Part shown: positions 6,059 to 46,270 of the stretch, piece after piece
How the letters are laid out: each line of letters opens with the position of its first letter
Numbering within the stretch: the stretch's first letter is position 1
Origin: Sphagnum compactum
Lineage: Eukaryota
Length of the DNA: 64,000 bases
Reading direction: 5' to 3'
Assembly (NCBI GenBank): GCA_965153455.1
Contig: OZ234493.1
Location: forward strand, 14,622,213-14,686,212
Notes under the pieces: model-generated
The model's database searches: none
Told to the model about the DNA's origin: nothing
What the model saw: only the letters and a program-made list of their open reading frames with translations
Made by a program: the position numbers and the translations under genes

Positions 6059-6130
6059 ACACCTTCACTTTTAGAAAACTTAGTCCTATGCCACCATACA
6101 CTTCCAATCAAATCTAGTTTCAATGAAATG

Positions 6131-6620: not shown

Positions 6621-7949
6621 GTGAGTGGATGTGTTCACCATCCATTGTACATAACTAATTACAATTTAGGGAAATTTTAAGAAATTAAACTTCTTCATTT
6701 TGCTTCTATGTACACCACTAGCTTACAATGTGCCAATCGATGAAACTAAACCACAACCTAACCATCCCAAGTGCATGTATGGTCATATGTGTGCAAGGTT
6801 TCATATGGAATGCGCATTATGTACAATTTCACCTACTGCCATGGATAACCATGTGTAGCTTACTTGCGGGCGTGCTTGCAATAATACGAACATTTGTTCA
6901 ATTTAGAAACTTTAATTATCATGATGTAAACAATTGTGATTGAATCTATAAACACATATAATTATACTATAAAACATGGTTTTGTGCCATTGCATACTTC
7001 CACCCAAATCTAATTTTAGTGGAATGGAATTCATTGATTACAATGGATTAGTGTAATAATGGAATCAATTATGCACTTGAAATGTCAATTATACTTGTCT
7101 CATCTTTTTTTGCATTTAGTGTGTATTTTTTGCCCCACACCATACATGTTCGCATTACATGTCCACACAAACACAACCACTCATGGACTAAATTTGATGG
7201 GATCCATTGAGACACCACACCATTAGTGCACCATTAAACCACCATACAATTAATCACAACACACGTGAACCACTTGAATTCAATATAGTGGATTGATCCA
7301 CCAAACTATAATGTGTGGAGTAAACCATTGAACTGGAAATGGCTTGTAATTAAAACATCATTATGCAATCACTAGAAGATCGCATGCAATAGTCCATTTA
7401 GTTTTGTGCTAGACCAATAGTTCCAAAGTTTCAATATGAAACAAAAAATATGCAAAGTTTTCAACCTCTTTTAAGTTGACAAATGATTGAACATTGTTGC
7501 TACCCCACATTTTTGAGGTGATGTGTTATTTTATGTGGATATAAAAGTAATTTTACAAAGTTTGCATGTAAGCAAGGTACAATTACATTTTTAATCATCT
7601 TTCATCATGTCTTTACTAGCAAAGAAAGGATGAGATGCTAGTATTTCTTGTTAAAGAAATAATGAGCTGCTAATCTTTACATTTAAAGAGGAAATTGGCT
7701 AATGTCTTTACAAGGCCAAAGAAAAAGTCAATTGTTGGTCTTTATTTTATGGAAGTAAATAAGTTGCTTTTGGAACACATGTTTTCTTCTTTTGTCAAAT
7801 AGAATGTAGAAACTATCCTTGTGTTTTCAAGTAGTGAAATTATCAAAATGCATTTGTTGGTTATGTTATAGTGCTCAATAGTTATATCTTAATCAAATGT
7901 TTACATCATTGGTTCAAGTTATGATTGGTTGTGCAAAATGTGATAGGTA

Positions 7950-8720
7950 GTAAGGAGTATGCATGACTTTTTGGGTTGTGGAAATATGACATAATGGTGC
8001 TAATGAAAGGCCAATGGGTGGTCTTAGGCACATGTGAAGGAAAAAAAAACCCATCTTGGTCAATGACACATTTTGGATGTCCTAATGTCCTTGGTGCAAC
8101 AACAAACATGTATGATGTTCCATGGGTCAAAATGTCAACCTCTAATGGGATGGAAGATGTGGATGCAACAATCAAGAAGAAGAAGACCCTCCATGGAGGT
8201 AAGATAATTGAAAAGAACGAAAACAACAAAACATCTTCCAAAAGCGAGTGAAGGAATGTGTGGCTATTAGCCATACACCTAGTATCCGAATTCTAACAAA
8301 TGACAAAGGAAAAATTGTTGGCTTGAAGTTAATTTGGTAGGAAAGAATAAAAGAAATTACATACCAATGATTGGACTTGACAATTTGGGAATTTGGATTA
8401 CACACCCAAAAATAATGGGATACAATATACAAAGACTTAGCCAAGTAATTAAGATATGACCCTCCTTTAAAACCCGACATTGTAGAAACTTACATGAAAG
8501 AACATTTCAATTCCTATTGGATCACATTGAGGAATGGGAAGTAGAATGGGATGATGCATATCATGAGAACTGTCCTATAGACATGTGGGATGCAAATCTC
8601 CACTATTGGAAGACTCCAAATGCCAATAGAGAAAGTGAACATATGGAGGCTATTCGTGCCCCGTTGTGAGAGCTAGTAGCTTTGGGACAAACACCATTAA
8701 CATGTTTTATGGAGCTACAA
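7950..8720 (+). mobile_element. Decayed transposon coding remnant (possibly CACTA TnpA/ORF2-like)
   Basis: A stop-riddled frame reads ..LDLTIWEFGLHTQK*WDTIYKDLAK*LRYDPPLKPDIVETYMKEH.. It is protein-like but interrupted and is flanked by short-motif arrays. Family assignment is tentative recall only. Confidence 0.3.
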
Positions 8721-9039
8721 GTATGATGCAACTTGGATGTCGTATGTTGCAAATTATTATTGTATTGTTGCACTCACATATATAGTAACAAGTTTGTAGG
8801 AAAAAAGGTGGATCTTCATCCCAAACAATAAGAATAACCTAATTTGTTGTGGGCAATCATGAAATGTTATTATATTATGATTGATAGGGGTCCAAAGGAA
8901 TGACACATGCTAAGGGAAGGAAGAGGAGAAGAATGTGCAAGAGCCAAAACAAATTTACCATATTTAAACCTCCATGTCCATGTTTTAGTTTCACTATGGT
9001 AGATGACTTAGACATAACATTAAAACTAGGTCCAAGTGA

Positions 9040-9600
9040 CTAGACCTTAATGACACAAGCTCCCAAGTGATGAATGCCTTGGTGAAAAGGACCATGATCA
9101 ATTGACATAATGAAATAGGCCCAATTCACACAAACCTTTGCAACATAAGCCCTAGTGAAATTTACAAACCCAAGTAACACAAACCTTAGTGATATTATAA
9201 ACTTGATTGACATAAGTTGAGTGACATGGGCCTTAGTGGCATATGTCCTAGTGAAATAGTACACCAAGCTTAAGTAACACAAACCTTAGTGACATAGACT
9301 TGGGTGATATAAGTTGAGTGACATAGACCTTAGTGGCACAATGGTTAATGACATAGGTTTAATGACACATGTCCTAGTGACATAAAATCGAAGTCCTGCT
9401 GAGTGACACATGCCATTATTGATATTAAGGATTGAATGAAATAGGCCATTAATGATATTGGTTGAACAACATAGGCCTTAGTGATATTAAGTGGCATGGG
9501 TTGAGTGACACAAGCCATTCATGGCATAAGTTTTAATGACTCTAGCCCTAGTGACATAGATCTTAGTGGTTGCATGGGCCTTAACAACATAGGTCTTAAA
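9040..9600. repeat. Degenerate short-motif array (CCTTAGTGACATAG / TTGAGTGACA variants), likely transposon subterminal repeats
   Basis: More than 15 imperfect recurrences of (C/T)TAGTGACA(T/C)A and GAGTGACA in ~560 bp. Confidence 0.65.
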
Positions 9601-12009
9601 GTAAAATGTGTTGTATTTTACAAAGGCTAGAGGTTAAAAACTATGATCATGACGAGTGGGAGAGGGAGGAGGAGGCAAATGAGCAAAGATGCAAAAAAAA
9701 AATCAACATTGTTGCACCTTACACTAGAGATGCATGTAAGGGGCATATCACATCAAACCAAATCAAGTCATTAAGAAAAGACATCACTAGAACTTAATGT
9801 GAGGGGAAATTTAATGATAACAAGCTTAATGACAAGTGGGTGGCCTTGTAATGGCACTTGCAATGGTGGCATTCAGTCCACATCTTAGTGACACTTAAAA
9901 AATTATAACTTAGTGGTATTAGTGTATGTAATGGAATGGATCAACAAGGCTACTATACACTTGCTTAATTAACATACATGTACAATATAAGCTTGAGTGA
10001 AATAATATAGGTATGATTGCAATATGAGAAGCAAGTCATGAATAATGATCTTAAATGATATTATTTGAATGAAAATAGAGTGACTTGAGCACATGGTTGG
10101 ATTTGAAAAACATTTTGGGCAAGGGGGGAGAGGGGGGGAAGTTTGTATCTATAAAATGCTTAAGAAAGCACCCTAAATAGAGGTTGTCATCTTATAATAC
10201 AATTTAAGTAATCCTAAACAAGGGGGTTTAAATATTTGAATTACAATTTCAACCATATTATGTGACTTTTAAAACATCTTGAAACCACTCATTATTATAA
10301 TCTTGCATTCTTGAAAGATTCAAACAATTATAAAAGACAAAAATATGGTGTAGTTTAGGTACCCTAATGTTATTAGATGCTTCTATTGCATATTCCTTGG
10401 TTCTTTTGCATCATTTTTTTTACTAATCTTCACAAATAATATGACAAACAATGTTTTTTTGCAAAACACCACTTCTACACACAACTTTAAAAAATAAAAT
10501 AAAAATTCTTCCAAATAATAATACCAAAAGCTTAATTTTTAAAAAATTCTCTGTTATGGTCAAGGCTCATGTTCAATATATCAAAGTGGCCTCAAAAAAT
10601 TTATTTGTAATTGTCAAAATAACTTCTACAACTTCCATAACTACTCAAACTTCAAGATGAAAGATGACCAACACAAAGTTCAAATTGTTCATTTAGTCCT
10701 ATTCCTGTAACCTAACTACCAAAAATCCAACCTCAAATTTCTTCAATTAAAAAAAGAAACAATTCTAGAATTCCTACAACATTTTGTATTGAAGGTTGCG
10801 TGGTTATACATTGAATTTAACAAAAGAATTGGTGCCAAATTTCACCAAATTTGAATAATTTAAATGAAAAATAAATTTCATTTCATTATATGAATTATAT
10901 GGACTAGGTGATTGTTACCTTGAGTTTTGGCTACAACTTGTAGTAGACTATTTCTTTATTTGTGGCATGGGAGCACTTAGACTAGGTGGATGGCATGTTA
11001 TAACCTATAGTCAACTGAAAGATGGTGAAAATTGTACATAGTTGAGTTTGTTACATAGGTACCATTTTAACTAGTTTAAGCAATTTATGTACCAATAAGA
11101 ACAATTGAGCTATGGCACATATCTATGTTACTCAACCAATGAATAAATGCCATGTCAACACACTTTCTCAAAAGCTCACTTATGAGAGGCATCATTTGAT
11201 TTTTCATTTTTGATATAAAAATTTTGGTGAATTTTTATTAATTTCTTTTTTTTCAAATTTACACTTGAAAAAAAAGTCCCAAAAAAATCTCAATTTCTTT
11301 GTTGAAAAGATGGTGAAATTTTGCCAGAAACAAAACATTGTTTTGTTGGGTTTTTAATCATTAGGCTAACCATCAATGGCACAATAGAATTGATGCAACC
11401 CTTTTCATTATTATGCAAGGTGTGTCGCATGTCTTATAGAGTATCTAGTTCTTTGGGTAGCATAAATGTCCTTAAATTTGTGGAAGGGGTATTCATTAAT
11501 TGTTCAAGACCCTTTTGATTTTGAAAAGAACATCTCTTTAGAAATTAAAAAATGATTTATGCAATAAAGGAAGTTATTTCCATTTTTTTTTCAAATGATG
11601 TGCAAAAAAATATTGGGTGCAATTTATTGAATTTTTAAAAATAATTTATTGATATGTAAATAAAGTCTTTAGAATAAATTATGAAAATATATTTAAAATA
11701 TTATTAATTTTAATAACATATTCTTCCAATATTTTATTATTTCATAACATATTAAATGATACAAATCTTGCCAAAACATTTTTTTTTTCTGAAAAAAGGC
11801 GTTCAATGCAATGTTTTTTTGGGGGGCAAGTTTTCACAACTTGGGAAGAAAAAAACGGAAGCTACAAAATGTACAAATTTGTTTTTTGGAAAAAATGAGC
11901 TTAAGTCATCACATTTCAAGAGAAAAAATCTTAAGGTCATCACATTTGGCTGCTCGACAATTTTTTTAAAAACAAAATCATGGATTTGGCAGCCCCAATA
12001 TGAATATTT

Positions 12010-13040
12010 GAGCTCTGCGTAGTTGCACACTACCATGATAATGAACTATTATTTAATTAATTATTTATGTTTTCATATGGGTTTTAATAATTCATCATTA
12101 TTTATGTCAAGTTTAACGTGTTGCTACACACTACCAACGATGATCAACTTTCTTTTTTTCTTATGTTTTCATATGGTTTTGAATATTTCATCACTTGGCC
12201 TTTGCATTGCTACACACTACCAGTGACGATTGACTATTTTTTTTTCTCTTATGTTTTCATGTAGTTGTCAAATAATTCATCATTAATTATGTCAATGTCA
12301 AATTTAATTTGATTTAATATAAATTCTACGGACATGAAAAGACACATGTTACTAGGGTTTTTCATATTCATGTTGGTAAGTAGGGAAAAGGAGTGAGGTA
12401 GGTATAAAGACGGAGTAGTGATTATGAAAGAAGGGAAATGATTATTAGAAAAATATGTAGCAAAAGAGGTTATTAGGAAAAAAAGAAAAAGAGGTTGTTA
12501 GACTTTGAAAATGGGACAATTGTATGTGGAATGGTCTTTGAAAATGATCAGGGACAACCAAACCCATAGATTTCAAAATTTGAAATTTATAAAATTTATA
12601 ATAAAATTAAAATAAAATTAATTTAAATTTAAAAAAAACTAATGAAAGAAGATTACAGAAAACCACCCATATACCAGCTCCTCAAAATTTCCGTCAATGA
12701 AATTATTTATATCAATGTCAAATTTAATTTAAATTAATATAAATCCATGACCATGAAAAGACACATGTGTAATTTGTTTTTTTCATATCCATGTTGGTGG
12801 ATATGGAAAAGGAGTGAGATAGTTATTAAAAATAGAGGTAATTATTAGGAAAGGTGGTAGATAATTATTAAGAAAATTAATAGGAAAAAGAAGTAGTTAA
12901 TTAAGAATGAAATGAAATAGTTAAGCTTGAAAATGAAATGAGGTAATTATTTCTGAAATTGTATTTGAAATGGTCCATGGATGACCAACACTAAGGATTC
13001 CTAAAAATTTCCCCCATATACCAAATTTTCACTGGAATTT
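12010..13040 (+). repeat. Interspersed repeat family, several partial tandem copies
   Basis: CACACTACCA..TTATGTTTTCATATGG recurs three times (12025, 12126, 12211). CATGAAAAGACACATG..CATATCCATGTTGG..GGAAAAGGAGTGAG recurs twice (~12330, ~12750). An inverted copy lies at 54470-54810. Confidence 0.8.
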
Positions 13041-14705
13041 TCAAATTTCGACAATATTTTCTAAGTATGCTAAGTCCACAAATAAGTTTTGAACTTATCT
13101 TGAGTTTCAAACTGGGTTCAATTTTTAAAAAATTTTGACAAATTATTCATAGTTTTTTTTTTTTTCTTTTTCCTGACTGACCCTCTTAAAAATTAATTAG
13201 TGGATCAAGACAATTTTATTTTATGGCTCAGGCCTTTACAAGAATGAGAAAACAAGGGATGGGTTCAATTAATAAATTTTTAATGTTTTAAAAAATAATT
13301 TGGGGGTCAATTTTGTGATGTAGCCAAAGGAAGTGGCTATCATCCATAGGAAGATATAGCAATATTTTTGGCTATAATAAAATCATCATTTTTTGGTGGC
13401 AAAATTTTCCTATTTGGTGTCCAAAAAAAAGGTTGGGTTGGGGTTTTGTGGTTTGCAACTCATACAAAGGAGTTTTGGTTTTGAAAAAATGGCCCAAAAA
13501 AAAGTTGGTATAAGTTAGAAATTTCCAAAAAAGTTCTACTTTCCCCGTCTGACCTGTAGCCAAATTTGACCAAATCCTCTTGTGGATGATTATAGTAAAA
13601 AAATTGCAAAAAAAAAGAAAGAACCCTAAACAAGATATGAAAACAAAAATTAAAAATTAAGCATCCTTCTTTATTTTTTGTCTACCAACTTGAACCAAGT
13701 TTAGAAATTCTGGAGATTTTTTTTCGAATTTTTTTCGATTGAAAATCACAAATGTCACTTCATTTTCGCATTGTGAATTTTTATTTTCTGTTTTTGGCGA
13801 AATATCGCCAGTAAAAAAACAGGGCTGGAAGGAATTAGGGCAAAATCTCACCAGTCGAGAATCCTCCAAACCCTAATCGAGCTAGGGTTTGTCGTCTCGC
13901 AGTGGCCGTTGCCATCTCTCTCGCCTTGTCATTCTGCTTCGTGCTCGCACGCTCGCTCGCGCCTCGCGTCTCGTCTCGTGGATTTTTGTTTGTGTTGCAA
14001 ATGTGTTGAGGAGCGCGGTCAATATAAGATATTGCCGGAGGTTTTGTAACTGCAAATCGGGGGAGACAGGAAGACGCTGCGAAGTCTTTCTTTACGCCAG
14101 AGAAAACATCGGAATTAGTTTATTTCAACGCTATTGCTGCGTAGTTCTTTCTACTGGAAACCGCCGATGTTGAGACGCATACTGTTAAGAGGATCATGCA
14201 TCAGGAGTGAAGCAAGCAAGGAGGAACAACAGCTTCAACCCGTAGTAGACCATGTGTCTTTTTTCTTTGGTTTCCAAGAAGGAAAGGAATTGTTGACGTC
14301 TTCTATTTCTCATAGTTTGGTGGTATTCTTCCTACTTTAATGTGCAATTCTCACCAGTTTGGAAACGCCAGTGAGATTCTTGGCTCGAGATTTCGAGCAG
14401 CGAAGACGGGGGAGAAGTTCTTTTCTCGCCAAGTTTGTTAGGGTTCCAGGAGTTTGGAAACCCTAGTGAGATTTTTGGCTCAAGATATGGAGCAGTGAAT
14501 CCAGGGGAGGAAGTTCTTTTCTTGTCAATAAGCACGGCTCGCAGGCGAGGAGTTATCCAGAACGTTCAAAGGGAGGGGTCCGGGTGTGTGAGAAGCAAGG
14601 GGATTGGTTGAGTGCAGTAAGGAAGAGAATAGGGACAGAAAGGAAGGTTCAGGAAGGTTACCGTTAAGTGTTTTCTTGGTCGTCGTTTGAGGTTTTGCTT
14701 TGCAT

Positions 14706-15806
14706 ATGGCGTACACGAGTAGGCCGCCACCGCCTCCAGGGTTGATGGGGGACAATCTGACCATCATGACAAGTATGCCTCTCCAAGAGCCTCAGGAAGT
14801 GGGGTTAGATGATGTTGCACTGGCCCCAGGACAGAGCCGCAAGAAAGATGATCGCATCCCGCAATGGGGATACCATGAAACCAAGGAGTTCATTGCCATC
14901 AGGGCAGAACTCGAGAAGGACTTCACACAGACTAAGCGCAACAAGACTCTGTGGGAGCTCATTGCTGGGAAGATGAAGGAGAAGGGGTTCCGTCGCAGTG
15001 CTGAGCAATGCAAATGCAAGTGGAAGAATCTGGTCAATCGCTACAAGGTAACTATTTCTCTGTCCTGTCTGGTGGGTCCTATGATATGGGTGGTTTTTTT
15101 TAATGTGTTTGTGTATTTATTGAATGGACTATCTCTGGGAGCACTGCAAGAGTTTTTCTGGTCCACTTGAGCAGAAACACCTGCAGCGCATGACAAGTAT
15201 GCCTCTCCAAGCAGATGGTTTTTTTTGAGTGAGTGGAATGTCCATTTGCAGGGAAAAGAGACATCTGAACCTGACAATGGCAGACAATGCCCTTTCTTTG
15301 AAGAGCTTGATGGAATTTTCAAGGAGCGAGCCAAGAACATGGACAGGCTGATGCTTGAGTCAGAAACAGGCTTCAGGAAGAGAGCAAAGCAAGGGAAGTT
15401 CTCAGATGAGGATAATGATGAGGAGTACAATGATGAGGAGGATAGTGAAGATGAGCGTGCTGTGAGGAGGAAAAAGCGGAAATCGGACAAGGAGAAGCAG
15501 AGGCAGACTGCAGACAGGTGCCGAGCCAGTAGCATGAAAGAGGTATTAGATGACTTCTTTCAGCATCAACAAAAGATTCAGGAGCAATGGCGCTATGCTG
15601 CTCAAAAGAGGCAACAGGAACGATTATTCAGAGAGCTAGAATGGAAAGAATCAATGGAAAAGCTTGAACAACAGCGCAGGGCACAGGAACATGCTTGGAG
15701 GGAACATGAAGAAATGAGACGGGTCAGAGAGGAAGCCCGGGCAGAGAAGAGAGATGCCCTCTTTGCAGCTTTGATCAACAAATTCTTTCAAGAGAATGGT
15801 TCATAG
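14706..15806 (+). CDS. Trihelix transcription factor, GT-1 clade (GT-3a/GT-3b-like), ~298 aa
   Basis: join(14706..15047,15252..15806) with a phase-0 GT-AG intron. Myb/SANT-like trihelix domain WGYHETKEFIAIRAE..KRNKTLWELIAGKMKEKGFRRSAEQCKCKWKNLVNRYKG..CPFFEEL, then an acidic stretch, basic NLS RRKKRK and a C-terminal coiled coil. Confidence 0.93.
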
Positions 15807-17250
15807 TTCAATCTATCTGTAGTCAGGGTTTACAGTGTCTTGTAGGTTTTACTGCATTCTCTGGTGCTGGAGGTGTGGAGGAATCCTTTCATTGTTAGCA
15901 GAAACTGAACTGGCAAAGATCCAGGCAACATCTTGTCACATAATGAGGTAATCCACGCATAGGTTGTATATATTAGTTTGGTGGAGATCTCGTACAACTG
16001 TACGAATATCATGCCCTTGACTGAAGATAGTGATGCCTTGTGCTTGGAGAATATCCGTTGGGATTCAAAACATGAGTCCTGATGACTTTGTAAAGCAAGT
16101 GAATTTCATTTCCAGTACTGATCTTCATGCTCTTTTACGTGTTTGCTGACCTGATACAGGATTCAAGGTCTTTAACCCATCCATTGTATTTTGTACTTAC
16201 TGTATGCCATTGAGGTGAGGTAAAGGCCGTCTAAGATTGTCACAATCCTACAGGGGAAATTCCTCAGTGGACAACAATTTTGAAGATTCTGTCTTTTTTC
16301 TTTTCTTCAATTGGCAGTCACAAGGCTATGACATTACTCGTTTCTTGTTGTGTCTGTTTTGGTTTGGCTGGGTCTGACATAATTTAATGGTTACCTTCAA
16401 AGTGCTATTGAGTGGTTTTTTCTGCAGTCTCTTAGACGTATTTATTTTCTTCAAGTGTCTTTTTCCATTAGGCTTGTGGTGGGAATAGCAACTATTGGAT
16501 GACTTCTGGAGGTTGTGCATGGATTAGTAATGTGCAGTGTCTCATGAAAGATGAATTGAGGATGACTAGCCAGAATTGATGTCTTTAATTTATTCCTCTG
16601 CTGAAATTTTCTGTATGATAAATGTAGCTGCCACTGGAAGTGAGTGATCATTGCCAGTTCTGTGTTGGAATCCTACCTCTGGTGAAATGTGCTCTTGCAG
16701 GTGGTTCTGCAGGTGTTGTGTTTAGAATTATGTTGCTTTGACACACCGTTGACCTGTTGATGAGAAATGTGAGCAGGATCTTAGATGGTATAATTTCAGC
16801 AGGTTCTTCACAAAAAGGGAGAAGTTGTGAACAGGGCTGAGGTTCAAGGGCAAAAATCTCTGTCTTTTCTTATTTAGGTTTTCTGCACTGGTAACTGTGG
16901 ACCTTGCTGAAAGGATCACCATAATACTCTATTACCATTTACTGGACAACTAATCCACATTGCAAACTTCAACTACTGAAACATTGGACACACCGAAGCC
17001 CTTGACTGGGTGGATGATTTTGTCAGTGAGCTGCAAGAACGTACTGGAAGGAGCATGAAGTGAAGTAGATCTGCAGAAGACTTCTTGCTTTTTGCATTGA
17101 TTTGATACCTTGAATTTTTTCACTTCTTAAGTACTCAGTTGTCATGTCCATATGCAACCAAGCTTGCCATGGAATCCAAATTTGGTCTCAGCTATTTTGG
17201 TGGATGGCAGCATCTAAATTATGATGAGTTCACATGATAAAAATGCTTTG

Positions 17251-20200
17251 TCATCCAATGTACATTTTTTCAGGTGTTGATGTTGGCTCTTCTTTTGTTA
17301 CAGGGCCAAAGTCAAGAGGAACAGACATCTCAGTGATGAACTCTTCAGTTTTTATGAACAATCTAGAAATAGCCATCTCCATCGACTCATCTGCAACATC
17401 TACATCCTCATCAACCCCGTGCACCACTTCTGGATCCCAGTTGGTGCATCCTGTTGATCCCAAACCTTTGTTTCAGTATAAATCATGAGCAACCTAGAGG
17501 CCTAGTTTGTCCCTCATTGAAATTCCCAGGACTCAATATGATCAAGCTCTAATCCATTGATTTAAAGCATTTTACTGATTTCACTGGAACACAAGAAAAT
17601 TCATGAAGTTAGATTGAATCCATGGTAATTAGAAAATGGGTTAGCAATCCATATACCAGCTTCTTTGAAAACTTGAAAAATTTGGCGCTTAAGAGCTCGA
17701 ATGATATCAAGGAAGTCATTTTTGACATCTTCAAAGTTGTCCTCATCCAAAAACCTCCCCAACTTGTATCGCATGGCATCCTCTATTTGCTGTACATTTA
17801 TTAGTAGCAAGAATGCACTTTCAGTCCCCAAGGATTTGGTCCAGAATCCATGTATAGTTTCAGTAATTTGAGACCAACAATGTTTATCAGAACATGAGAG
17901 ATGCATGAGATGTGGGCACTGCTGTAGAGCTCAAAATGTGACCTATTTCAATGTAAGTAAATGTGTCCTTATGTGAACTTATACTCTAGTGCTCTTTACA
18001 TACATATCTCAAAGAAGATCATAGATGATGTCAAGGTGTTTTTCTCCCAAATCATTATTCATTGCTGCATTGAATGTACAAGCTGTGGAGAAATGTGTAG
18101 ATTTTGTGTCAAGAGGACTGAGGAGAAGAGATTTACAGCATTAAGGTCTTGGACGTCACGGACAAGTTGAGCATGATACTCTCGTGCATGAACCAATGCA
18201 GGCAAAACCTCATCCACCATCTCTTGTTCCAAATCCAGATTGTTCTGAGTGAGGGTGAAAGCCTTAACCTCGATTAGTCTCTCATATTTTTTTGTGTGCG
18301 GTTTTGAAATGAATTTCTCCCTGGCCTCTGTGCCTTCAATCACAAACATCTTCTTCAAATCCATGTCCTGCAGTAAATACAATCATGTCACACCATGGGC
18401 ATCCACATCACTGATCTGATGTTACTGATCTTATACAAGAAACACCCTTCCTTAGTACATACAATCTTATGACAAGTTTGACAAGAGAGACAATCTTGAC
18501 TTTTGGACATGGGTATTTTCTACATCCCTTGACCTTCACATTCTCAACTTTTTGATGGACAGTTTGTACATCGCCTGACATTCAAATTTTTGTCTTTTGA
18601 TGGGCATTTTTCTACATCCCATGAACTTCACATTCAAGAGGATATGTAATGCAATGTGGGGAAGCTTACATTGGTGAGTGGGAGCGTAGGACGTTTCTGT
18701 TTCATTCTATTCTCACGTTCCTTATCACTTGCAAGAGCAGTTTCAGCAAGTGGTCGTCCGTCCATGTCTTTCCATGTCCCATATGTACGCCAATTCTCAT
18801 ATGCATCTCCTTCCTCCATCATTGTCAATATCTCTGATGCACCCAGCCCCAACTAACAGAGAAAGTCAAGTACACATCTCTCAAGGATTGCTTTCATTGA
18901 ATACCTTTCACCAAATGCAACCCGAGTATATGGGATGTGCCTACATCAACACAAATTAGCAAGCTCCTTGATCCATTGACAGGTGTGGTTTTTTTTCTTT
19001 ATCATGTTTTCTATCATATTTGAACATGAATTCAATAGTTTGTCAATTGATAGGAAGTGTTGGAAAAATTGATCAAAGAAGGGAACTTTTGGAGGAGAAG
19101 AACCTGAAATCAGCTTCTGATAATCATGTCGCTCTTCAAACAATTCGTAGCTCCCATCGATGATTTTTTGTATCTCCTCCCCTTTTTCTAGGAGTTCAAT
19201 TTCCATCTTATTGTGAAGCTCCTCAAACAAAGCATGCTCAACTCGCAAGGACTGCATCTCATCTTGCATCTTTTTGTTGTGCCATTGAATAGTAGTAAGG
19301 TCTACCATTCCCTGCAATTTTGCAGACCCACTTTGAAGAATCAAAGAAACTGTACCACAGGCCAGAAAGAAAGGTCACAGATCATCTCAACTTTGTATAA
19401 CAGAGCTAGCTACATAGTGGTTTTTGAAAAATATCTCCCTTTGAGAAGATGATGATGATTACCTTGTGCACTCGGTTTTCGAGGATGTGAATGTGGATTT
19501 GAGTAGCACGGTTGTGCTCACTTGCTGCATGAACACCACCCATAGCTTTTTTGGAGCTATATTCATCAGCATACAATGTTGCAATTGCGCGCTCTAGCTC
19601 CTCCACCCTTTTGTTTTCTGCATCAATTTTATCTATCCACATTGCACACTCAGCATTCAATCTCTTCATCTCCTCAGCATAGTCCTGTTTCCCCACACCC
19701 ACAACAGAATTCTTGAACAAGGTAAAAGTATTCTGATGCTTTAAAACCCTTATTCTGATGAATTTGCAGGGATGTTCTTCCAGCTCTTTAGTTAGATGTG
19801 AGAGGTGATGGATGGTCCTACAATCATCAACCAAGGCCGGTAATAGAACAATGAGGCAGATCTTTCTCCAAAGTGTCATGGAGGAGGTTCATCTAGATGA
19901 TTTTTGCAGAAGAAGGGAGACTATATTGTTTCTATGAACCTCAGGGTAGAAAAGATCAATCTTGTCTTGGGTCATCATATTGTCCAGCTGAAGTGTTTCC
20001 AACATCACTTTCTGTCGTCGTAACACAAGTTCACTTTCTTCATGAAAGTGCCGCTGACTAGCTTCCATCTTGCGGAAAGTATGGTGCAGTGTTTCCAACT
20101 GAAATTCCAAAAAAAACCCCAAGCATTCAAACCCAAGTCAGAATCATGCAAATCTGTTCATTCTGACTTGTGTTACTTACAAATCACTTGATTTCATCAG

Positions 20201-26000: not shown

Positions 26001-26966
26001 AAATGAAATTGGACAAAAAAAGTTTGCAAACATCCAAACAATTGAAATTGGAAAAATAGTAAGTTAATGAAAAAAAACCTAATTTTGTGCCAAAAACATG
26101 ATGAGGGTGTTGAAAATGTGATAGTCTTCCTTGAATGCAACTTGTAATGTTCAAGCTCTACGATAAAAGGTTTTCAAAAAAAGAAAAATTGAACAAAATT
26201 TGTCATTCAAAATGTAACATCTCATAGAAGTTTGGTGCTTGTAGACATGTGTGATTAATGAACAAACCAACAATTAAAAAAAAAAACAATAAAACAAAAA
26301 GAAAGTGTAAGAATCAAGTGGTTGTTGTGTGTGAATAATGAACAAGCCAACATCTAGAAAAAGTAACAAAAAAAGTGCAAGAACCTTGTGATTGTCATGT
26401 GTGAGTACTAAATAAGCTAACAATTAGAAAACAATATCATAAAAAAAAATGAAGTGTAAGAACTTAGTCATGCTTGTCGAATGTTGCAAATTCCAGAGAG
26501 ACCTCAATGTTTTGAAGCCAACACACTTTAAAGCTCCTTACTAGCAACCTACAAGCTACCATGAATGTTAATGTTACCATTGCTTCTCTCATTGATGATT
26601 ACTTCACAAAACAACTAAAAAAATAACTCACATAACTAAAGACATCATTCACAAGAAAATGTGACAACAAGAGACACAACCAACAAACAAAGAATGGACA
26701 ATGAGAGAAAATTGTGAACTTTTCTATTCACCCTTAAACCCTTTTTGAGTAAAAGTCATATGTGAATTTCTTTCAACCTTGACGAGTGGATGCAGATGCA
26801 CTGCAATATCATTGCCATGAACAAATAATAATGCGATATGATTATCATAATGGAAGACATCCACCAATTGTGGGTAGGGACGATTAATGAAAATACAACA
26901 AACTCCAGATATGTCTTCATGATGCATATCTAACTAATATGCATGTTGATAACTGGCACAACACTA
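23005..26966 (-). mobile_element. Full-length but decayed hAT DNA transposon
   Basis: TIRs CAGTGTTG-GCTAGTTAT / ATAACTGGCACAACACTA. 8-bp flanks GTTATAAC (22997-23004) and TTTATAAC (26967-26974). An internal minus-strand transposase remnant is present. Confidence 0.85.
23700..25700 (-). pseudogene. hAT transposase pseudogene
   Basis: Fragments in the correct order with stops and frameshifts: BED-finger-like (LRCIIYK..NGVTSMKTHV), catalytic (LVINYLDEGWTPRHV..LFEMHETT..VIAFVKDEG), and C-terminal dimerisation-like (ELSLFQR..NPLTW..HKGQF.NV.FLAK). Confidence 0.82.
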
Positions 26967-27830
26967 TTTATAACCTTATAACTATGGTTGTTTCTTTGAA
27001 TTTTGTGATATTGAAAATCTAGCGAATTTCTTGCAAAAAATTAGCATAATTAGTTGAATTACGAATTGAAAATATTTTTCCAAAATTTTCCAAAATTTTT
27101 AAATGGAAAAAAAATTCAGAAAAAATCCTCTAGTTATCAGTTATAACGCATAACTTATAAGTAAAGAAAAAAAATTGGATAATATAATTCTCTGGAGTAT
27201 TAATTACAAACGGATTTTCTCGGCAGAGACGCATGCAGGCGGGAAGGAACCCACAATTTGGATTCGGGTTCGATCGTTTTAACACTCATCACTTCTTGTG
27301 AAGTTGCATGCTTGTGAGCCATGGATCATAGCTCAACAATTAGTTAAGCTTTAGTTCCGTAATTTTCCTTAGTACTAATGATTTGAATGCTTATAAGCCT
27401 CCAAGTAGTGATTATTAATAGTTGAATCAGCTTTTGTGATATTTCTAGGCATATAGTACTTCTTTATTTCAGTTAATGTAGCGCTTAATCAGTTAAGCAC
27501 CTAGTAAACCTTTTAAAATACATTATCCCTTTAATGTTGTAGAGAATGGAAAGGGGATGTAAAATTAGATGTGATTTATTGATATATAGGGAATACAAGC
27601 CCATAATTAACAATAGCATTTCGCCATGACAAGGTTAAGTTAGTCTATAGAAGAATCTTCAAGCACTAATGATGTACTTGTAAGATTTTTAGGATGTAGT
27701 CTTAATACATCTTTATTTAGTTTCACTTCTATCAAATTTTTAAATAGAATCAAATCAAACTTAAGTATTAACATTTCCGCCTGAGTAGCCTCAGGTGAAT
27801 TACAACTTTATAACCGACTTAAAGGATAGT

Positions 27831-28244
27831 TCACAATTGCAAAAAATCTAGAATGTGACGAATGGAGCGAGCGAGGTACTCGGCTCGGTGCTCCATGGGA
27901 AGGGGGTTGATTGGCCCTCGTAGCCAACGATAATGGCCATCACCTGGAACCCACGTTCGACAATGGAGACGGACATCATCATCTTCGCATTGACACTCTT
28001 CAAACTTTTTTGGCACGGCTCCACGAGCAGGAACGAATTCTAAATAGATTGCTAAAGCATGTGGGTTAGGAGACAATTGACGATCCCATGCCGAACGATC
28101 GACTCGAGTGCGCACCACTCGCCTAGGCGGTTCTTCTTCGCGCGGCCGTTGAGAAACAATCACGTCGAGCGGTGCTTCTTCAAGCTCTTCCTGTTCTATT
28201 GGTGCAACTGGAGGATTCGAAGGCATAACGACATCATCCGCCAT
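27831..28244 (-). CDS. Orphan 137-aa ORF carried inside the solo-LTR-like element
   Basis: Intronless ATG-to-TGA ORF with a good start context (GTCATGG). It is GC/CpG-rich compared with the flanks and has natural-looking composition (acidic N-terminus, basic patch, CxC..HC). No family recognised. Confidence 0.55.
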   Translation of the reverse strand: MADDVVMPSNPPVAPIEQEELEEAPLDVIVSQRPREEEPPRRVVRTRVDRSAWDRQLSPNPHALAIYLEFVPARGAVPKKFEECQCEDDDVRLHCRTWVPGDGHYRWLRGPINPLPMEHRAEYLARSIRHILDFLQL

Positions 28245-28802
28245 GACTAGTTCTCACATGCATCAACAAAAACCAAGAAGGTAGTACAAACAATGTGGTA
28301 CTTGCGTTAAGAAGGGGTCGAAGCCTTTTTATTTACCAAATTAGGGTAGGCGTAAGGTGTGGGAGTGACGGCGGAACCTCATGAAAACTCGAACATCCTA
28401 GATCTAATGGATTCATCAAACCTTAATTTCGACGGCGGATCTAGAAGTATGTGGGGGGTTTTTTGTGGTGCAAATTTTACTTCCAATTTACTATGTACTA
28501 CATAGTTAACTAGTGCATGGTAAAATAAATAGGTAGGGGATATCAAAAGAGTAAATGGTACATGGAAATGTTAGTTCAACCAATGAATTAGTTATGTAAG
28601 AATTCAAGGACGTTACTTGTTACTACCGATAAACTATCCTAGTAGTTAGTTACTTGAAGTAATTAGGATGAAGAAGTAAGATGTGAAGGTCAACGACGGA
28701 AAGAATAAGGATGAAGCTCAAGAGACCTCATCAAGATATCCAAGATAAAGGAAGGGATGAATCCTCCAATCCCATTAGTCATGAGGATTGTCATCCTATT
28801 TG

Positions 28803-28952
28803 ATTGAAGGATGGAATATTTCTTGTGTCTCATTGGGCCCAAGAATTTTCATCCTAAACTCAATTGGATGGTAATTTATTCTCAATTCTCATTGGCTCTA
28901 GAAGGATGAGGAGGCCATTGATTGGAGCAAAGGATTTCAAAGCTTTCATTGG
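28803..28952. promoter_or_regulatory. Periodic CCAAT-box array within the LTR-like element
   Basis: ATTGG at 28832, 28863, 28891, 28921 and 28948, plus ATTGA at 28803; spacing 27-31 bp. Confidence 0.55.
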
Positions 28953-29145
28953 ACAAGGGGAACAAGCTCAAGGAAGGTCATGGAGGCTTACCAAGGGAGA
29001 GGGTATTGTGTGTATGTGAGAAAAAAGAAAGAGGAGGAGGTGTGAGGAAGAATTTTTAGTTTTTATGTGTGGAGAGGTGTTCATGGAAAAGGTGTGTGCA
29101 AGAATCAAACATGGAAGGAAGTTGTGTGTAACAAATACTTGTAGC

Positions 29146-29513
29146 AAAGCCTCTGGATTTTTGGTTCAATTAATTGTTCCTCCCAAATGCACCGTTGGAT
29201 TTGTGTCAAAATGAAATCAGTTTTAGTTTGGAAGGTGTAGAAGGTTGTCCCCAATTTTCAGCATCATCGGGTTTGCTGTCAGGGAGTTACACTGGTTGGA
29301 AGTAAGGGGTGTTGTAGTGGAGTTCATGGAAGGATTTCTATGACAAGGCCTCTGAATTTTTATTTCAATTAATTGTTCCTCCCAAATCCACCGTTGGATT
29401 CGTGTCAAATTTAAATCCGTCTTAGTTTGAGAGGTGTAAAAGGTTCTCCTCAAAATTCAGCATCATCGGAATTGCTGTAAGGGAGCTACACTTGTTGGAA
29501 GTAGAGGGGGTTG
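29146..29513. repeat. Tandem duplication, 199-bp period, inside the LTR-like element
   Basis: TCAATTAATTGTTCCTCCCAAAT.CACCGTTGGATT.GTGTCAAA..CAGCATCATCGG..GTTGGAAGTA occurs at 29166 and 29365. Confidence 0.9.
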
Positions 29514-30016
29514 AATTGTCTGTTTTTTCCTTCAATCGAAGCAAAGTGGTTTCTAGTTCAAAGCTTAACTCTTGATCTAAAAATAAAAACTTATGAGATT
29601 TTGTAACTCGGCTCCTTTTATATTAGCTTTCCAAAAATTCAATGCATGTTAGATTAGGAGGTTATATGTAGATGTTATAACAAATGGAACGGAAGGGTTC
29701 CAACCATCAAGCGTGACATTGGATTGAACATCAACATACGGCTCCTTCATATTCCATCATGGTGAGTTATGATTATCTCAAAATGTCTTTGTATCTTCAA
29801 ATTGGACACAACGCATTAGATACTTATTGAATTTCATTACTTACCTTGAACCGCCTTACTTGTTAGAACTACAACTACATAGTAATTCCACTTCCAACCG
29901 ATTTTTTTTTTGTGAATGCATATCTTAATGGTGAAGGTGTGCAAGAATTCCTCACAATGCTCATCATCTTTCATTCATTCAGCTTCTTCTTGTGAGAAGG
30001 ATCGATAAGAGAAGAA

Positions 30017-30394
30017 ATGACTTCGTGCTGTTGTTATAGCAATAGCAATGCTGCCATCTTTTCCTCTTCGTATTCGTCGATAGAATCCTCCTTCACTCAC
30101 AATGACGCACCAATTCTGTCTCCAACCCGTGTTTCCTTCTCGTCGTCATCATCGTTGTTGCACTGTAGTAGATTAGGATCTGTTGTTGTTTCTGGAAAAT
30201 CGAAGTTTCAGGATAGAGTGAAGAACGCAGGATTTACAAAATCTAGTGCTGCGCAGAGCTCACAAACACATTATAACTCTTCTTCCTCTCCTACCCATCT
30301 CTTTTTCTTCTCAGCATCATCATTTCCGCACTCTAGATTAAGGTTTAAGGTTTATGGAGCATTAGGATTTATAAATAATGCACTAGTCACCTAA
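30017..30394 (+). pseudogene. Orphan 5' gene fragment encoding a Ser-rich, plastid transit-peptide-like sequence
   Basis: The ORF MTSCCCYSNSNAAIFSSS.. is very Ser-rich and is preceded by UTR-like sequence that the LTR insertion splits. No downstream exons could be identified. Confidence 0.35.
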
Positions 30395-33300
30395 TAAACT
30401 TTTCAAAACACGTACATGGATAACTAGTTTTAAGAGTTTTTTTGAGAACTTTTTATTTATTATTTATTATTATTTTTTAGACTAAATTATCACTAGACTT
30501 TTATTAACAAATACATGTTGAAAAAAATTAAGAATTGAAAAAAAAATTAAAAAAAAATTCATATAAGATCACTTGTTTGTTAATATTGATCCATATTTCA
30601 CACATGTCACACATTGTATTCTTTGTAATGCTCACTGTTAATATGAGTTGGAAAATCAAAACCATTTAAGGTTTGTAATCGAGTTGAATCATTACAAAAC
30701 CTCAATAACAACAAATGGCCCTAACCATAATGCATAATATTAAAAAAATTAATTTAACTTCATATTTATGAACAAGGGTTTAGTCCTTGTATTTTTTATT
30801 GAACGAAGCCCTACACCTACAATGTTGCATAATTTTAAAATGTTAATAACTTCATTGCTTAACATCATCAAACCTTTCAATGGTTCCAATATGTTTTTTT
30901 AAAAATATTGATTCATTCAACCTTGCGTGATTAGTAATACAAAAAGAATTTTTTAAAATTTTGATAAGTAAAATGACATCAATGTTATAAATCATGTGTG
31001 ATAACATAATAGGTGATCGTATAGGTTGATAAACTATTATTAGATTTGAAATCATATATATTTTTTATGTACATTTATTAAGGTTTAATTTAGATTCACA
31101 CGTTGAATTTGACTTTTTGTTTAAAGGTTGTAAAGTGTGATTTCCCATGATTGATTTGGAATAAGCTTGCCCTGGTATTATTTGTTTCATTTTTAAAACG
31201 TTTACCCTCATCATTTATGAGGGATTGGGATAGGCAAATCGAGTAATGACATTTTTATACAAAAATATGGCTATGGCTTTAACATCATCAATATTGATTA
31301 CCTTGGCCTTTGATCATTCTCTTTCTAAAAAACATATTATAATTAAAAAAAAAATCTCAATAAAAAAATTATATGAAATGCCCAATTTGATTTGCACAAA
31401 TTATATCTCACATCGTTTATATGTTTAACATTTAATGAAATAATTATTGAACTAACGTAAATGTGTTTCAATTTGATCGACATTTATTCATCATAATCAT
31501 AATTATTTAAAAACAGCAAATTATGCAAGTTTACTTTAACAAATTTATAATTAAAATGTAAATATTGGGATCATATCTTATTATTTTGTGAAATTTCAAA
31601 TCCAAAATTTTCTAATATTTTGAATTGAATATTGGAGGAAATGGATATCCTTTAAATTTGTCAAAATTATGTATTTATAATGACTCTGAAATGAATCTAT
31701 CAAAGTTAATTATTTCATATTTGGGATTGGTTTCAAAATTTGAATATTTTATAAAATATTTTTTTCAAACATAGTATAACTTGATAATAAAATCATATAA
31801 AAGAGAGGCATGCAATGTAAAATAGTAAGCAAATCTTGCAAACAATGACTAAATCTTCCTTTTCTTTTTATTCCTTTCAAAATTTTTGACAAAAATAAAA
31901 AAATGACAATGAATCAATAAATTAAATCAAACATTTTTAATGTGAATAAATTGTGTGTTAATTGACAAACTAATATGGATTTATGGACAATGTAATTTTT
32001 CTCCATGTTTGAATTTTGAACCAAAGTTGGTATTTCAATTTTTAAAAAATAAAATTTTGTACTCAGGAATTGATCATATTAAAATCATAAGAAAAATATA
32101 AATATCCATAAGTAATAAATTTATAAGTTGAACACATGTTTGTTGTTTTGTAATTCAAGTTTCAATACAATTATCATCATTTAAAAAAAGAGTTTAAAAA
32201 AAAATGTTTTAAATCAAGAAATGTTGTTTTAATTTAGTTTAATCATGAAAATGTTGTTTTCATGCACAAGGTTAAAGGATTTTTTAATTTCATTTTTTCA
32301 ACCTTGTTAAGTTCAATCATGAATACATATTTATAAAGTTAGATGTTAAATGTTCAACGTTGCAAAAAACAAATTGCGATATTCATGTATGAAAAAAAGA
32401 TTCGATTTGTGTGTGATTTGACTATATTGTTCAACATCATAACAAATTTTCATGTCTTTGAAATCAATTGAAAGCCCATGGAGAGGAAGAAAAGAAAATA
32501 ACCTTTTCATTTTGTAACAATTGATGGAATTATGTTCTTCAATGCATGATTTCATTTAAAATCTTTTTGTTCTAATCAATCAATTTAATTAACTAATTAT
32601 TATTTTTTTGGAAAATGGATTAATAGTTCACATTCTTTTTCATTTTAAGGTTTTAGTTTTTAATTAGCAAAAACATATGAAGAAAAATCTAAAAAATGTG
32701 AAAGGTGTCATATTTAGTTCAAATCTAACTATATAAATTCACAATGATTTGCCTTTAAGAATGTTTGAAACCATTGAAAATTTCAAACAATGAAAGTGTC
32801 CATAAGATTCAAATATTACATTAAACATTAAACCCCATTCAAATTTTAATTTGATAATTTGACATGATCCAACCTTGGCATGGCCACATCCTTCTAATGG
32901 GAACTATTGGATTTCAAATGGTGAGTTTGAACATTAACCAAATTGAAATTTCTAATTCATTTCAATTCAATACATAAGACGTTTTATGTGTTCATGTGAA
33001 AAAACAAAAGAGTTGATGAAACTGTTCAAAAATTTGCAAATTTAAAAAAATAATTTGAAATTTTATTAATATATGCAAAGTATATAGCCTTTTCTTTCCC
33101 ATCTTCACCACGATAGAAAGACAAATTGAAGTTTCTTTCTTCGCCCTTGGATAATTCGTAAAGCTATTAGGAATGACAAAAGTAATAAATACATATTATA
33201 AATTATGTTATATTCAAGGATGAATCATTTTGACTAGTGTTAATCATTACTCAAGCTTACAACAAATGAATTGAATAAGAAAAGTTTTAAGAAAAAAAAG

Positions 33301-36135: not shown

Positions 36136-38045
36136 ATGGCCACACTGGCTGTTCCTGCTGCTGCTGCTCCTCCTCCACTTGTGGCAGCATCATCATTGAG
36201 GAGCAGCAAGCAGGATGGTAGTGGAAGGGTGAGCTCTGTGATGGCGGTGCTCCCAGCTGCTGCCAGCAACTCCAATTTGTCTCTTGCTTCTGCCCTCCCC
36301 TATGGAAGAGGCATCCATCAGCACAGACAGCCTCTTGTTCACATCTCTCCGATGCCAAGGTTCTTCACCGTTGACCCTTGATGATTTTCTTTGTTGTTGG
36401 GTCTTTTTTGCTTGGTCTTTTGGTTGCAATTTTTTTTCCTCATAGTTGATTGATTGTCTTCTTCATCTGTTTTTGCAGATGGTTGCAAGTGAGAGGATCC
36501 CGACTGCAGGAGAAGCCACAACAAAACAGTAGAAATTCACAAGTGCAGGAGATTCAATGTCAGTCATCAAGAGCACAGCAGCATCCACATTGTTGGGACG
36601 CAGGGTTTGCAGATTCCTCCTCGAGCTTGCAAACGAATAGATTGCGACACGCCGCTGCACACGCACAAGAAGCAGCAGCAGCAAATCAGGATTCACAGTT
36701 TGTCGCAGAACTGGATGGTGGGGAACCTGCACAAGAAGGGGTGGTGGTGTTGGTCATCGGAGGAGGTGGAAGAGAGCACGCGCTTTGTTACGGTTTACAA
36801 AGATCAGCCTCCTGTGATGGGGTCTTCTGTGCCCCTGGAAATGCAGGTATTGCAACTTCAGGTGATGCAATTTGCATCACCGATCTTGATGTTGCAGACA
36901 GCAATGCTGTTGTCTTCTTTTGCAAGCAGCGAGGTGTGGGACTGGTGGTGGTAGGTCCTGAAGCTCCCTTGGTTGCTGGGCTTGTCGATGATTTAACCAG
37001 TGCAGGCATCCCTGCCTTTGGTCCATCAGCTGCAGCAGCAGCATTAGAAGGCTCAAAGGATTTCATGAAACGCTTGTGTGACAAGTATGACATACCAACT
37101 GCAAAGTATCACTCCTTCACAGAAGCTGAGAATGCGAAGAAGTACATTCAGGAGCAAGGGGTTCCTATTGTAGTGAAAGCTGATGGTCTGGCAGCAGGCA
37201 AAGGAGTCGTTGTTGCACTCACATTAGAAGAGGCATTTGAAGCCGTGGATTCAATGCTGGTGAGGAGTGAATTTGGTTCAGCAGGAGGCATGGTGGTTGT
37301 GGAGGAGTTTTTGGATGGAGAGGAGGTTTCTTTCTTTGCACTAGTTGATGGAGAAAATGCAATTCCTTTAGTTTCTGCTCAGGATCACAAGCGAGTTGGA
37401 GATGGTGATACAGGTCCCAACACAGGAGGAATGGGAGCTTACTCACCTGCACCAGTGTTGAGTCCTGAGCTTGAGAAGCAAGTTATGGAATCCATAATCT
37501 ATCCAACTGTGAAGGGGATGGCAGCAGATGGCTGTCGGTATGTGGGAGTGTTGTATGCAGGGGTGATTATTGAGACGAAGACAGGGTTGCCAAAGCTTTT
37601 AGAATACAATGTTCGTTTTGGAGATCCTGAATGCCAGGTGTTGATGATGAGGTTTCGGTCAGACTTGGTGCAAGTACTGTTGGCAGCTTGCAAGGGAAAG
37701 CTTAAAGGGGTTCAACTGCAATGGGCTGATGATTCTGCCCTGGTGGTGGTGATGGCTAGCATTGGTTATCCTGGAAGCTACTCCAAAGGTTCAAAGATTG
37801 GAAACCTTGATGCTGCAGAGCTTTCAACTCCAGGTGCAAAGATCTTCCATGCTGGCACAGCACTTGACTCAAAAGGAAACATTGTGGCTACAGGAGGACG
37901 TGTGCTGGGAGTAACTGGAATTGGTAGAGATGTTGCTGAAGCTCAGCAGAATGCATATCAAGTCATTGATCAAATTGACTGGCCTGAGGGTTTCAATCGG
38001 CACGATATTGGGTGGCGAGCTGTATCACGCTTGCAAAAGGTCTAA
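36136..38045 (+). CDS. PUR2: Phosphoribosylamine--glycine ligase (GAR synthetase), organelle-targeted, ~596 aa
   Basis: join(36136..36359,36479..38045) with a phase-2 intron. Ala/Ser-rich transit peptide. PurD motifs VLVIGGGGREHAL, APGNAG, VVGPEAPLVAGLVD, LEGSK, VVKADGLAAGKGV, QDHKRVGDGDTGPNTGGMGAYSP, EYNVRFGDPECQ, FHAGT, GGRVL. Confidence 0.97.
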
Positions 38046-45479: not shown

Positions 45480-46270
45480 CAGCAATTGGAAGAAAGTGAA
45501 CTGGAGTGTGCTGATGAATAGAGTGGTTGTGAATCCAATCTCCCTTCCCAAGCATGAGATTGATTGACATGTATGCCAAATGTGGGAGCAGGAAGGATGC
45601 CCAAGATAGTTCAACAAGATGCTCCCTATGTTATGCTTTCCTAGACTGTCATGTTATTGAGATCTATGGGAATAGAGCAATTATGAATCCAATACTCCTT
45701 CCTAGGGATGAGCCTGATCAATGTATGCCAAATGTGTGGGGAGGAAGGACACTCAAGATGGTTCAACAAGATGCTCCTTATGTGTGCTGTCCTAGACTGC
45801 CATGTTACTGGGAAATACATGTGGGCAATGCTGAAATCCCATTATTGGAACTATTGGAGACAAAAATCCACAATGTGAAGGTGTGCAACTGAATCCTATC
45901 ACTTTTGTGGCATCTTGGATGTGTATGATAGCAACAGTTGAAGATAGTAAGACTTGTGCTCATTGATCAGGTTATTTAAATGAGTTTTGACATTGATGTC
46001 TTTGTTAAGGAAAATAGCGTCCTTGACTCATAGTATGTGAAATGCAGGCGCATGTAGGATGCATGGAGTGTGTAGCAAGGTCACTTAGACAATGTGGTCT
46101 TGTGGAATGCAACAATATTTCAATTAATTGTTGTGACATGTGAGCAACGGCAGGCAATACATTGAGAAATGCAACAAGGTGTAGAGCCAATCTGTGTCAA
46201 TTTCTTTTACAATCTTTTGTGCATAGACCAGTGTAGAAGCATTTGAGGAGGGCATGTGTATATGAACCAA
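45480..46270 (+). pseudogene. PLS-class pentatricopeptide repeat (PPR) pseudogene fragments
   Basis: Broken PPR motifs across shifting frames with stops: LIDMYAKCGSRKDA (45560), MYAKC (45721), S*TAMLLG, EGVQLNPITFV (45877), KCRRM*DAWSV (46040). Confidence 0.75.

Follow-up and report, generated by a model that had tools for sequence, protein, structure and literature searches.

Long terminal repeats (LTRs) of retrotransposons are treated as non-coding regulatory ends, and the extra open reading frames (ORFs) of plant Ty3/gypsy elements, such as Ogre ORF1 and the antisense ORFs of Tat/Grande, lie in the internal region. In retroviruses, accessory genes are found in the LTR or its U3 part, as in the superantigen of mouse mammary tumor virus (MMTV), and human immunodeficiency virus (HIV) nef and foamy-virus bel overlap U3. 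Literature matches for 'LTR-encoded' mainly concern the MMTV superantigen, and no description of a protein gene inside a plant LTR was found in the portions available to us, of incomplete coverage, of the literature on Sphagnum/Physcomitrella LTR elements or intra-LTR ORFs; the accessible part of PMC7466625 mentions no such LTR-borne gene. Cassandra, Helenus, and Ajax, as far as the available text of PMC10886601 describes them, are LTR elements that are non-autonomous and whose LTRs contain modules resembling small-RNA genes. Here, we analyze a 2,644-bp, solo-LTR-like element in a 64,000-nucleotide stretch of Sphagnum compactum DNA (contig OZ234493.1; this whole stretch is called the window). 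Our analysis indicates that the element is probably an old and very abundant moss repeat of the LTR-retrotransposon type, now a solo LTR, that carries a small gene under selection.

The element resembles the solo LTRs of plant Ty3/gypsy and Ty1/copia elements in its TG..CA ends, 5-bp target-site duplication (TSD), kilobase size, lack of gag/pol, high copy number with subfamilies, and TATA and poly(A) motifs in one orientation. It is unlike them in having no paired full-length relative in 80 related loci and in holding a conserved protein gene within the unit. Like the retroviral U3 genes, this gene would lie inside a terminal repeat, be duplicated at integration, and survive in the LTR; unlike genes such as MMTV Sag, to which it has no sequence relationship, it belongs to an element of a moss host, and its U3 placement comes from motifs only. 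The resemblance to retroviral U3 accessory proteins is functional and positional only. With Cassandra, Helenus, and Ajax the element would share an LTR bearing a functional-gene-like module with its own promoter, but their units, according to the same partial source, are short and LTR-paired, whereas the module here is protein-coding and no Rfam family was found within 27000-30300. The ORFs of Ogre, Tat, and Grande are likewise small, lineage-specific accessory ORFs of LTR retrotransposons, but they are located in the internal region and not in the LTR.

The first-pass annotation of the window had described TGTGAG...CTCACA ends, ATGCT on both sides, no gag/pol, and an uninterrupted 137-codon ORF, and all of these were seen again at the following positions.

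27313..29956, minus strand (orientation by the ORF; 5' end at 29956): solo-LTR-like element of family A, 2644 bp, with boundaries common to 33 complete copies
27308..27312, no strand: left target-site duplication ATGCT, the same letters as 29957-29961
29957..29961, no strand: right target-site duplication ATGCT; the joint 27300->29957 in DNA run X7 shows the element-free site
29951..29956, no strand: hexamer CTCACA at the element's end, complementary in inverted order to TGTGAG (27313-27318)
27831..28244, minus strand: ORF of 137 aa (stop included), ATG to stop

The inverted termini of the element are only 6-7 nt long. There are no terminal direct repeats: no direct repeats of at least 60 nt were found at the element ends, and the likeness of head to tail reaches at most 11 nt in family A and in a second family, B. 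Neither the 137-aa ORF nor any of 21 further open frames (at least 45 aa) of the element matched a Pfam family above threshold, and gag/pol are therefore regarded as absent from it.

The 80 related loci were returned from a metagenome scan with 432 tblastn-confirmed stretches and were ranked by tblastn with the ORF, which favors intact frames and penalizes frameshifts. Alignment of the element to these loci by blastn identified 33 complete copies, with first and last bases exactly as in the window, in line with the earlier prediction that copies with the same boundaries exist; 28 of them are distinct, after five same-locus duplicates from another metagenome were dropped. In ORF orientation, most of the 33 start TGTGAGGA and finish GGCTCACA. 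A perfect 5-bp duplication flanks 18 of the 33 complete copies (15 of the 28 distinct ones), and six more agree at 4/5 positions. The window element is one copy of a high-copy family with identical boundaries, and its ends are not due to chance. Summed contig depth in public runs on 26500-30800, which is not a copy number, was around 20-100 in the flanks and rose hundreds-fold in the element, to 3,200-17,300 (X1) and 15,000-78,000 (X7). At the protein level, the ORF retrieved 1597 clusters of 75-240 aa at E<=1e-3, the best 120 showing 76-88% identity at 132-169 aa; Sphagnum jensenii CAK9856496.1 is a named member of the ORF protein cluster, and no longer forms were found. Scans of viral contigs, with just two marginal 24-aa matches, and of genome contigs, with a single 696-bp contig from a Streptomyces assembly, yielded no copies of use.

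Two empty sites were identified. In the paralogous case, L049 has the element in the middle of a sequence that locus L001 holds unbroken, and the overlap is 5 bp. The orthologous empty ATGCT site, whose presence in a related genome had been proposed as a check, was observed in DNA run X7 from another organism as a joint 27300->29957 at depth 27.7 with one letter between. Because this organism has the empty site, the window copy was inserted after the split of the two lineages.

The 137-aa ORF runs uninterrupted from ATG to stop. The N-terminal half of its protein is acidic and Pro-rich, and a conserved C-terminal domain of about 80 aa carries the motifs LxI/VxLE..., GHYRWLRGP, and EY..TIRRILDFLQL. 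Across the family, L64, H104, Y105, W107, L108, and G110 (GHYRWLxGP) are invariant, followed by a terminal helix TIRRILDFL. Among 1.84 billion representatives, a profile search found 228 matches, including full-length relatives at 25-42% identity, and named relatives with the same layout come from Physcomitrium patens (A9U498, A9U643, A9U5N5) and Ceratodon purpureus (KAG0576639.1). The window ORF shows this layout and is 37% identical to the P. patens protein P0333 over 110 aa (E=1e-18). A second profile search collected 1890 proteins, among them those of family B (~140 aa, 38-47% identity, high-copy). Overall, the relatives share the ~140-aa layout at 25-47% identity in three moss genera, and at the family level the ORF is a real gene belonging to a moss-wide protein family. 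The gene models P0335 and P0242 each join two copies of the ORF. The Ceratodon protein KAG0576639.1 (P0328) and a 299-aa protein encoded on a Logan contig (P0274) each contain the conserved domain twice in tandem and are 68% identical; these two may be ordinary host genes with this domain, which poses the question whether it was captured or domesticated.

The ORF also stands out in base composition, with a GC content of about 50% in the ORF island versus 30-38% in the surroundings. The observed/expected ratio of CpG is 1.18 in the ORF, 0.41-0.45 in the remaining element, and 0.21-0.38 in the 7-kb flanks. Since CpG is high in the ORF and low in the rest of the element, the CpG richness that the first-pass annotation had assigned to the whole element, against depleted neighbors, is essentially that of the ORF island; its claim holds in part. 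Of 39 CpG sites inferred for the ancestor, 28 are retained in the window copy and 12-32 across the copies. CpG retention is a trait of the family and not special to the window copy.

Family B shares contigs with family A in L069, L006, and L024. Its units are about 2.6 kb long and have the termini TGTGAGG...GGCTCACA, an internal tandem repeat, and an ORF at the same relative place.

L069 4214-6833: family B copy with an intact ORF and the perfect TSD AGGAA
L006 2076-4440: family B copy with four stops
L024 3468-4880, minus strand: family B copy with two stops
L007, L009, L022, L048, L061, and L063: family B fragments

Beyond the termini, the DNA likeness of the two families is confined to 63 bp inside the 3' end of the ORF. 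The non-coding DNA of A and B has diverged past alignment while the protein was kept.

The selection acting on the ORF was investigated with the 85 ORF-homologous stretches in the loci, 18 of which are intact, while most others contain 1-5 in-frame stops. Removal of near-duplicates left 68 non-redundant copies, the window copy included, and the window copy is the closest of all to the consensus (17/414 differences). By parsimony on the tree of the 68, non-synonymous-plus-stop and synonymous changes number 190:120 on internal branches and 757:299 on terminal ones; given the transition-rich spectrum observed, the latter ratio is near that expected under neutrality. Clustering at 10% distance with at least three members per cluster yielded four subfamilies of 17, 5, 25, and 4 copies, the other 17 copies being excluded. 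Between the four subfamily consensuses the non-synonymous to synonymous ratio (N:S) is 31:46, versus 733:314 for private changes, counted in each copy against its own subfamily consensus (odds ratio 0.29, Fisher p=2.2e-7). The contrast is found in the C-terminal domain (11:33 between consensuses vs 354:208 private; odds ratio 0.20, p=1.3e-6) and in the N-terminal part (20:13 vs 377:106; odds ratio 0.43, p=0.03). Transposon genes follow such a pattern, and the ORF is constrained in the lineage that keeps copying and evolves neutrally after insertion. ORF conservation, which the first-pass annotation had proposed to test, is present between subfamilies and does not hold for the individual copies; most of these are disrupted and their private changes look neutral, which is in part the outcome that it had named as refuting its idea. 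Because selection is seen only between subfamily founders, the gene would serve the element while it spreads and not the host at each insertion; of the dispersing cassette described earlier, a gene selected in the spreading lineage is retained, and a host gene maintained at each copy is not.

Two other measures were tried and not used. ORF indels are few, with one private indel versus 58 in 1131 bp of near flanks and 80/85 copies gap-free, but this depletion was rejected as evidence of selection because the tblastn ranking penalizes frameshifts. Incidental copies (four of family A and three of family B) show indels in 2/7 cases, too few to judge, and no ORF indel is present among the 12 of 72 entries given in the public-run indel table. 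Pairwise Nei-Gojobori omega values of 0.34-0.37, from a set that also counted L002 with its internal stop as intact, were set aside since transitions at about 9:1 deflate the estimator.

Several candidate signals accompany the ORF, all at the level of motifs.

28325..28345, minus strand: TATA-like motif TAAATAAAAAG, some 90 nt 5' of the ATG
27707..27725, minus strand: first AATAAA, about 115 nt past the stop codon
27572..27602, minus strand: TATATATCAATAAA, in which a strong TATA box (TATATAT) directly adjoins a second AATAAA, about 245 nt past the stop

Among 29 aligned copies, all of these motifs are largely conserved in one orientation; the commonest form of the TATA-like motif is identical in 12 of the 29, and the others are one or two bases off. 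We infer that TATATATCAATAAA is a candidate promoter and poly(A) region of the LTR itself, which would place the ORF in U3, and that the ORF has a putative promoter of its own within U3. The first-pass annotation had also named RNA data as a check, and metatranscriptome contigs do cover the ORF in X15 (records 10 and 11) and X16 (records 17-19), although these contigs are unstranded and their depth is no basis for ranking gene parts. The greatest depth in X15 is over the ORF bins (185-408), and depth is 0-6.6 over 27364-27651, the last ~300 bp, which are heavily covered in DNA runs. These contigs give a weak hint that free-standing copies are transcribed.

If the element is indeed a solo LTR with a selected gene, an integrase-type insertion (TG..CA ends, 5-bp duplication) would have placed it just upstream of PurD after the split from the relative whose site is still empty. 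A gene of ~140 aa is carried within the repeat unit, most likely in U3; it was under purifying selection in the element lineage that founded the subfamilies and decays neutrally after insertion. The protein may help the element to propagate or to escape silencing, as retroviral U3 accessory genes do, solo copies may still be able to transcribe the gene on their own, and the intact partners would have been lost via LTR-LTR recombination.

A number of observations weigh against this explanation. No full-length element, with two direct copies around a primer-binding site (PBS), gag-pol, and a polypurine tract (PPT), was found in the 80 loci, and the paired copies that the first-pass annotation had predicted are thus missing there; two direct family A copies are present only in L065, each with its own TSD. 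No shared sequence adjoins the element, 49 distinct downstream and 42 upstream flanks all being different, no recurrent PBS-like or PPT-like motif was found at the flanks, and 26 loose ends at 29956 in run X7 agree at just 0.41. Decayed pol remnants of the Ty3/gypsy type, with reverse transcriptase and integrase zinc-finger motifs, lie in L006 (4441-6700) and L040 (7537-8112 and 11080-12509), and in L040 a family A copy is inserted into a pol; the pol remnants of L006, L040, L043, L047, L008, and L078 have inconsistent distances and orientations to the elements and were rejected as the element's partner for this reason. On the side of the gene, 16 of the 68 non-redundant copies are intact, including that in the window, and 52 are disrupted, in a sample that favors intact frames. 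The consensuses of two of the four subfamilies, both small (n=5 and n=4), carry a stop, and many copies have one in common at codon 84, so that part of the spread may have gone on without an intact ORF. Searches of Pfam, PDB sequences, and the ESM Atlas found no known domain, fold, or function for the ~140-aa protein (no Pfam match; best PDB profile E=0.45; ESM Atlas score at most 0.76). AlphaFold2 gave a few strands and a C-terminal helix at a predicted local distance difference test (pLDDT) score of 43.5 with 48 close sequences and 49.6 with 24 diverse sequences, scores that are too low for fold comparison. In X16 the cover is not concentrated on the ORF and is deepest elsewhere (79.6 at 29092-29235), and contigs from RNA libraries could stem in part from traces of multi-copy repeat DNA.

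Because no copy is paired around an internal region, we infer the LTR identity of the 2.6-kb unit from its TG...CA termini with a short inverted repeat and its 5-bp TSD. The earlier proposal of an accessory gene inside an LTR accordingly holds as far as a conserved gene lies in the repeat unit and not in an internal region, with the LTR status itself conditional. If the unit is an LTR, the ratio of solo to intact copies would exceed about 15:1 (a rough estimate from 0 of ~45 per end in this sample), a plausible excess in a family that is old and has LTRs of 2.6 kb. An indirect hint of an LTR pair comes from the P. patens gene model A9U5N5 (P0335), which contains two 125-aa runs that are 100% identical, as expected if the predictor had spliced both LTRs of one young element; it suggests that two identical copies lie close together in direct orientation in the P. 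patens genome. Identity as a terminal-repeat retrotransposon in miniature (TRIM) or a large retrotransposon derivative (LARD) was rejected, there being no terminal direct repeats around a non-coding core.

The flanks and the lack of pairs would also suit a 2.6-kb unit that is a whole non-autonomous element with its own small gene, moved in trans by a retroelement integrase or an integrase-related DDE transposase. All copies being unpaired with TSDs of their own, no common sequence adjoining any of the flanks, the equal size, termini, and gene position kept by the DNA-unrelated families A and B, and the selection of the gene in the spreading lineage all speak for this explanation, which we nevertheless hold to be unlikely. 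No route is known by which a single LTR-like unit could pass through reverse transcription, solo copies are expected to predominate in old families with long LTRs, and the two identical copies in the P. patens gene model would suit an LTR pair. Among integrase-related DNA transposons, the accessible part of PMC6839031 gives TSDs of 4 bp for Ginger1 and 6 bp for Ginger2 and GingerRoot, and inverted repeats from tens of bp to about 150 bp, with 100-150 bp for GingerRoot; the window element and the 18 perfect copies of the 33 have a 5-bp TSD, and the inverted ends span 6-7 nt, so identity with Ginger or GingerRoot was rejected. The same part of the source describes TG..CA-type termini for Ginger, as here, the presence of GingerRoot in bryophytes and lycophytes, and single ends that can mimic solo LTRs; GingerRoot differs by its TA..TA ends, DDE transposase, and 6-bp TSD, the element here being without a transposase.

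The intact copies, that in the window included, might instead be present-day host genes, that is, gene-plus-promoter cassettes under selection at single loci. The window copy is intact, nearest to the consensus, CpG-rich (1.18), and located in a genic region beside PurD, RNA-library contigs lie over the ORF, and the two-domain relatives from Ceratodon and the Logan contig resemble ordinary genes. We give this little credence, as the private N:S of 733:314 is near neutral for a transition-rich spectrum, the majority of copies contain stops, the insertion is absent from a related organism, and the CpG retention of the window copy is not special. Still less probable, to the point of being remote, is that the ORF plays no part in the element, being a fragment captured from a host gene or a frame open by chance: a 137-codon frame in 2.6 kb is by rough estimate not very improbable, most copies are broken, and the protein has no known domain, but the ~140-aa layout is kept in three moss genera at 25-47% identity where the other DNA is unalignable, and synonymous changes are in excess between subfamilies.

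Taken with these alternatives, the first-pass interpretation of an accessory gene inside an LTR is partly supported; the unit is probably an LTR-type repeat with a conserved accessory gene, which is under selection in the lineage that spreads and not at the single copies. If the unit is an LTR, it would be a plant counterpart of the retroviral genes placed in U3, and its gene would be copied twice per insertion and survive the formation of solo LTRs, as a result of which hundreds of promoter-plus-gene cassettes would come to lie beside host genes, here at the 5' end of PurD. If it is not an LTR, it would represent a new type of mobile element. Either way, it offers a new, testable protein domain in a lineage with P. 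patens genetics. A more far-reaching proposal, which in its entirety we regard as quite unlikely, is an undescribed moss mobile unit: an LTR-like module of about 2.6 kb (TGTGAGG...GGCTCACA, 5-bp TSD) whose sole gene, for a protein of ~140 aa with a new domain, would have persisted in Sphagnum, Physcomitrium, and Ceratodon over hundreds of millions of years, and which would spread to hundreds or thousands of copies without gag-pol of its own, with the protein acting as a propagation or anti-silencing factor and the free-standing copies expressing it.

Two further features concern the structure of the element and its neighborhood.

29145..29513, no strand: tandem repeat of 199 bp in 1.9 copies, located in the element's 5' third
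29969..30371, plus strand: first exon of the neighboring PurD gene (glycinamide ribonucleotide (GAR) synthetase), beginning 12 nt from the element

An RNA contig on this side (X16 record 24) starts 12 nt from the element. Its initial 403 nt correspond to 29969-30371, where an exon has an ORF from 30017 with a Ser-rich N-terminus. The continuation of the contig matches 36591-36615, inside the GAR synthetase exon of PurD (36450-38045; GARS_N/A/C domains), across a first intron of about 6.2 kb. Since the contig joins 29969-30371 to the PurD exon, the insertion sits at the 5' end of the PurD gene.

A 696-bp contig in a Streptomyces assembly (L083) encodes 38 residues that are 61% identical to the C-terminus of the ORF, most likely through moss or plant contamination of that assembly. 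Elsewhere in the window, at 45569-45783, direct repeats encode MYAKCG-like motifs, by eye typical of pentatricopeptide-repeat genes.

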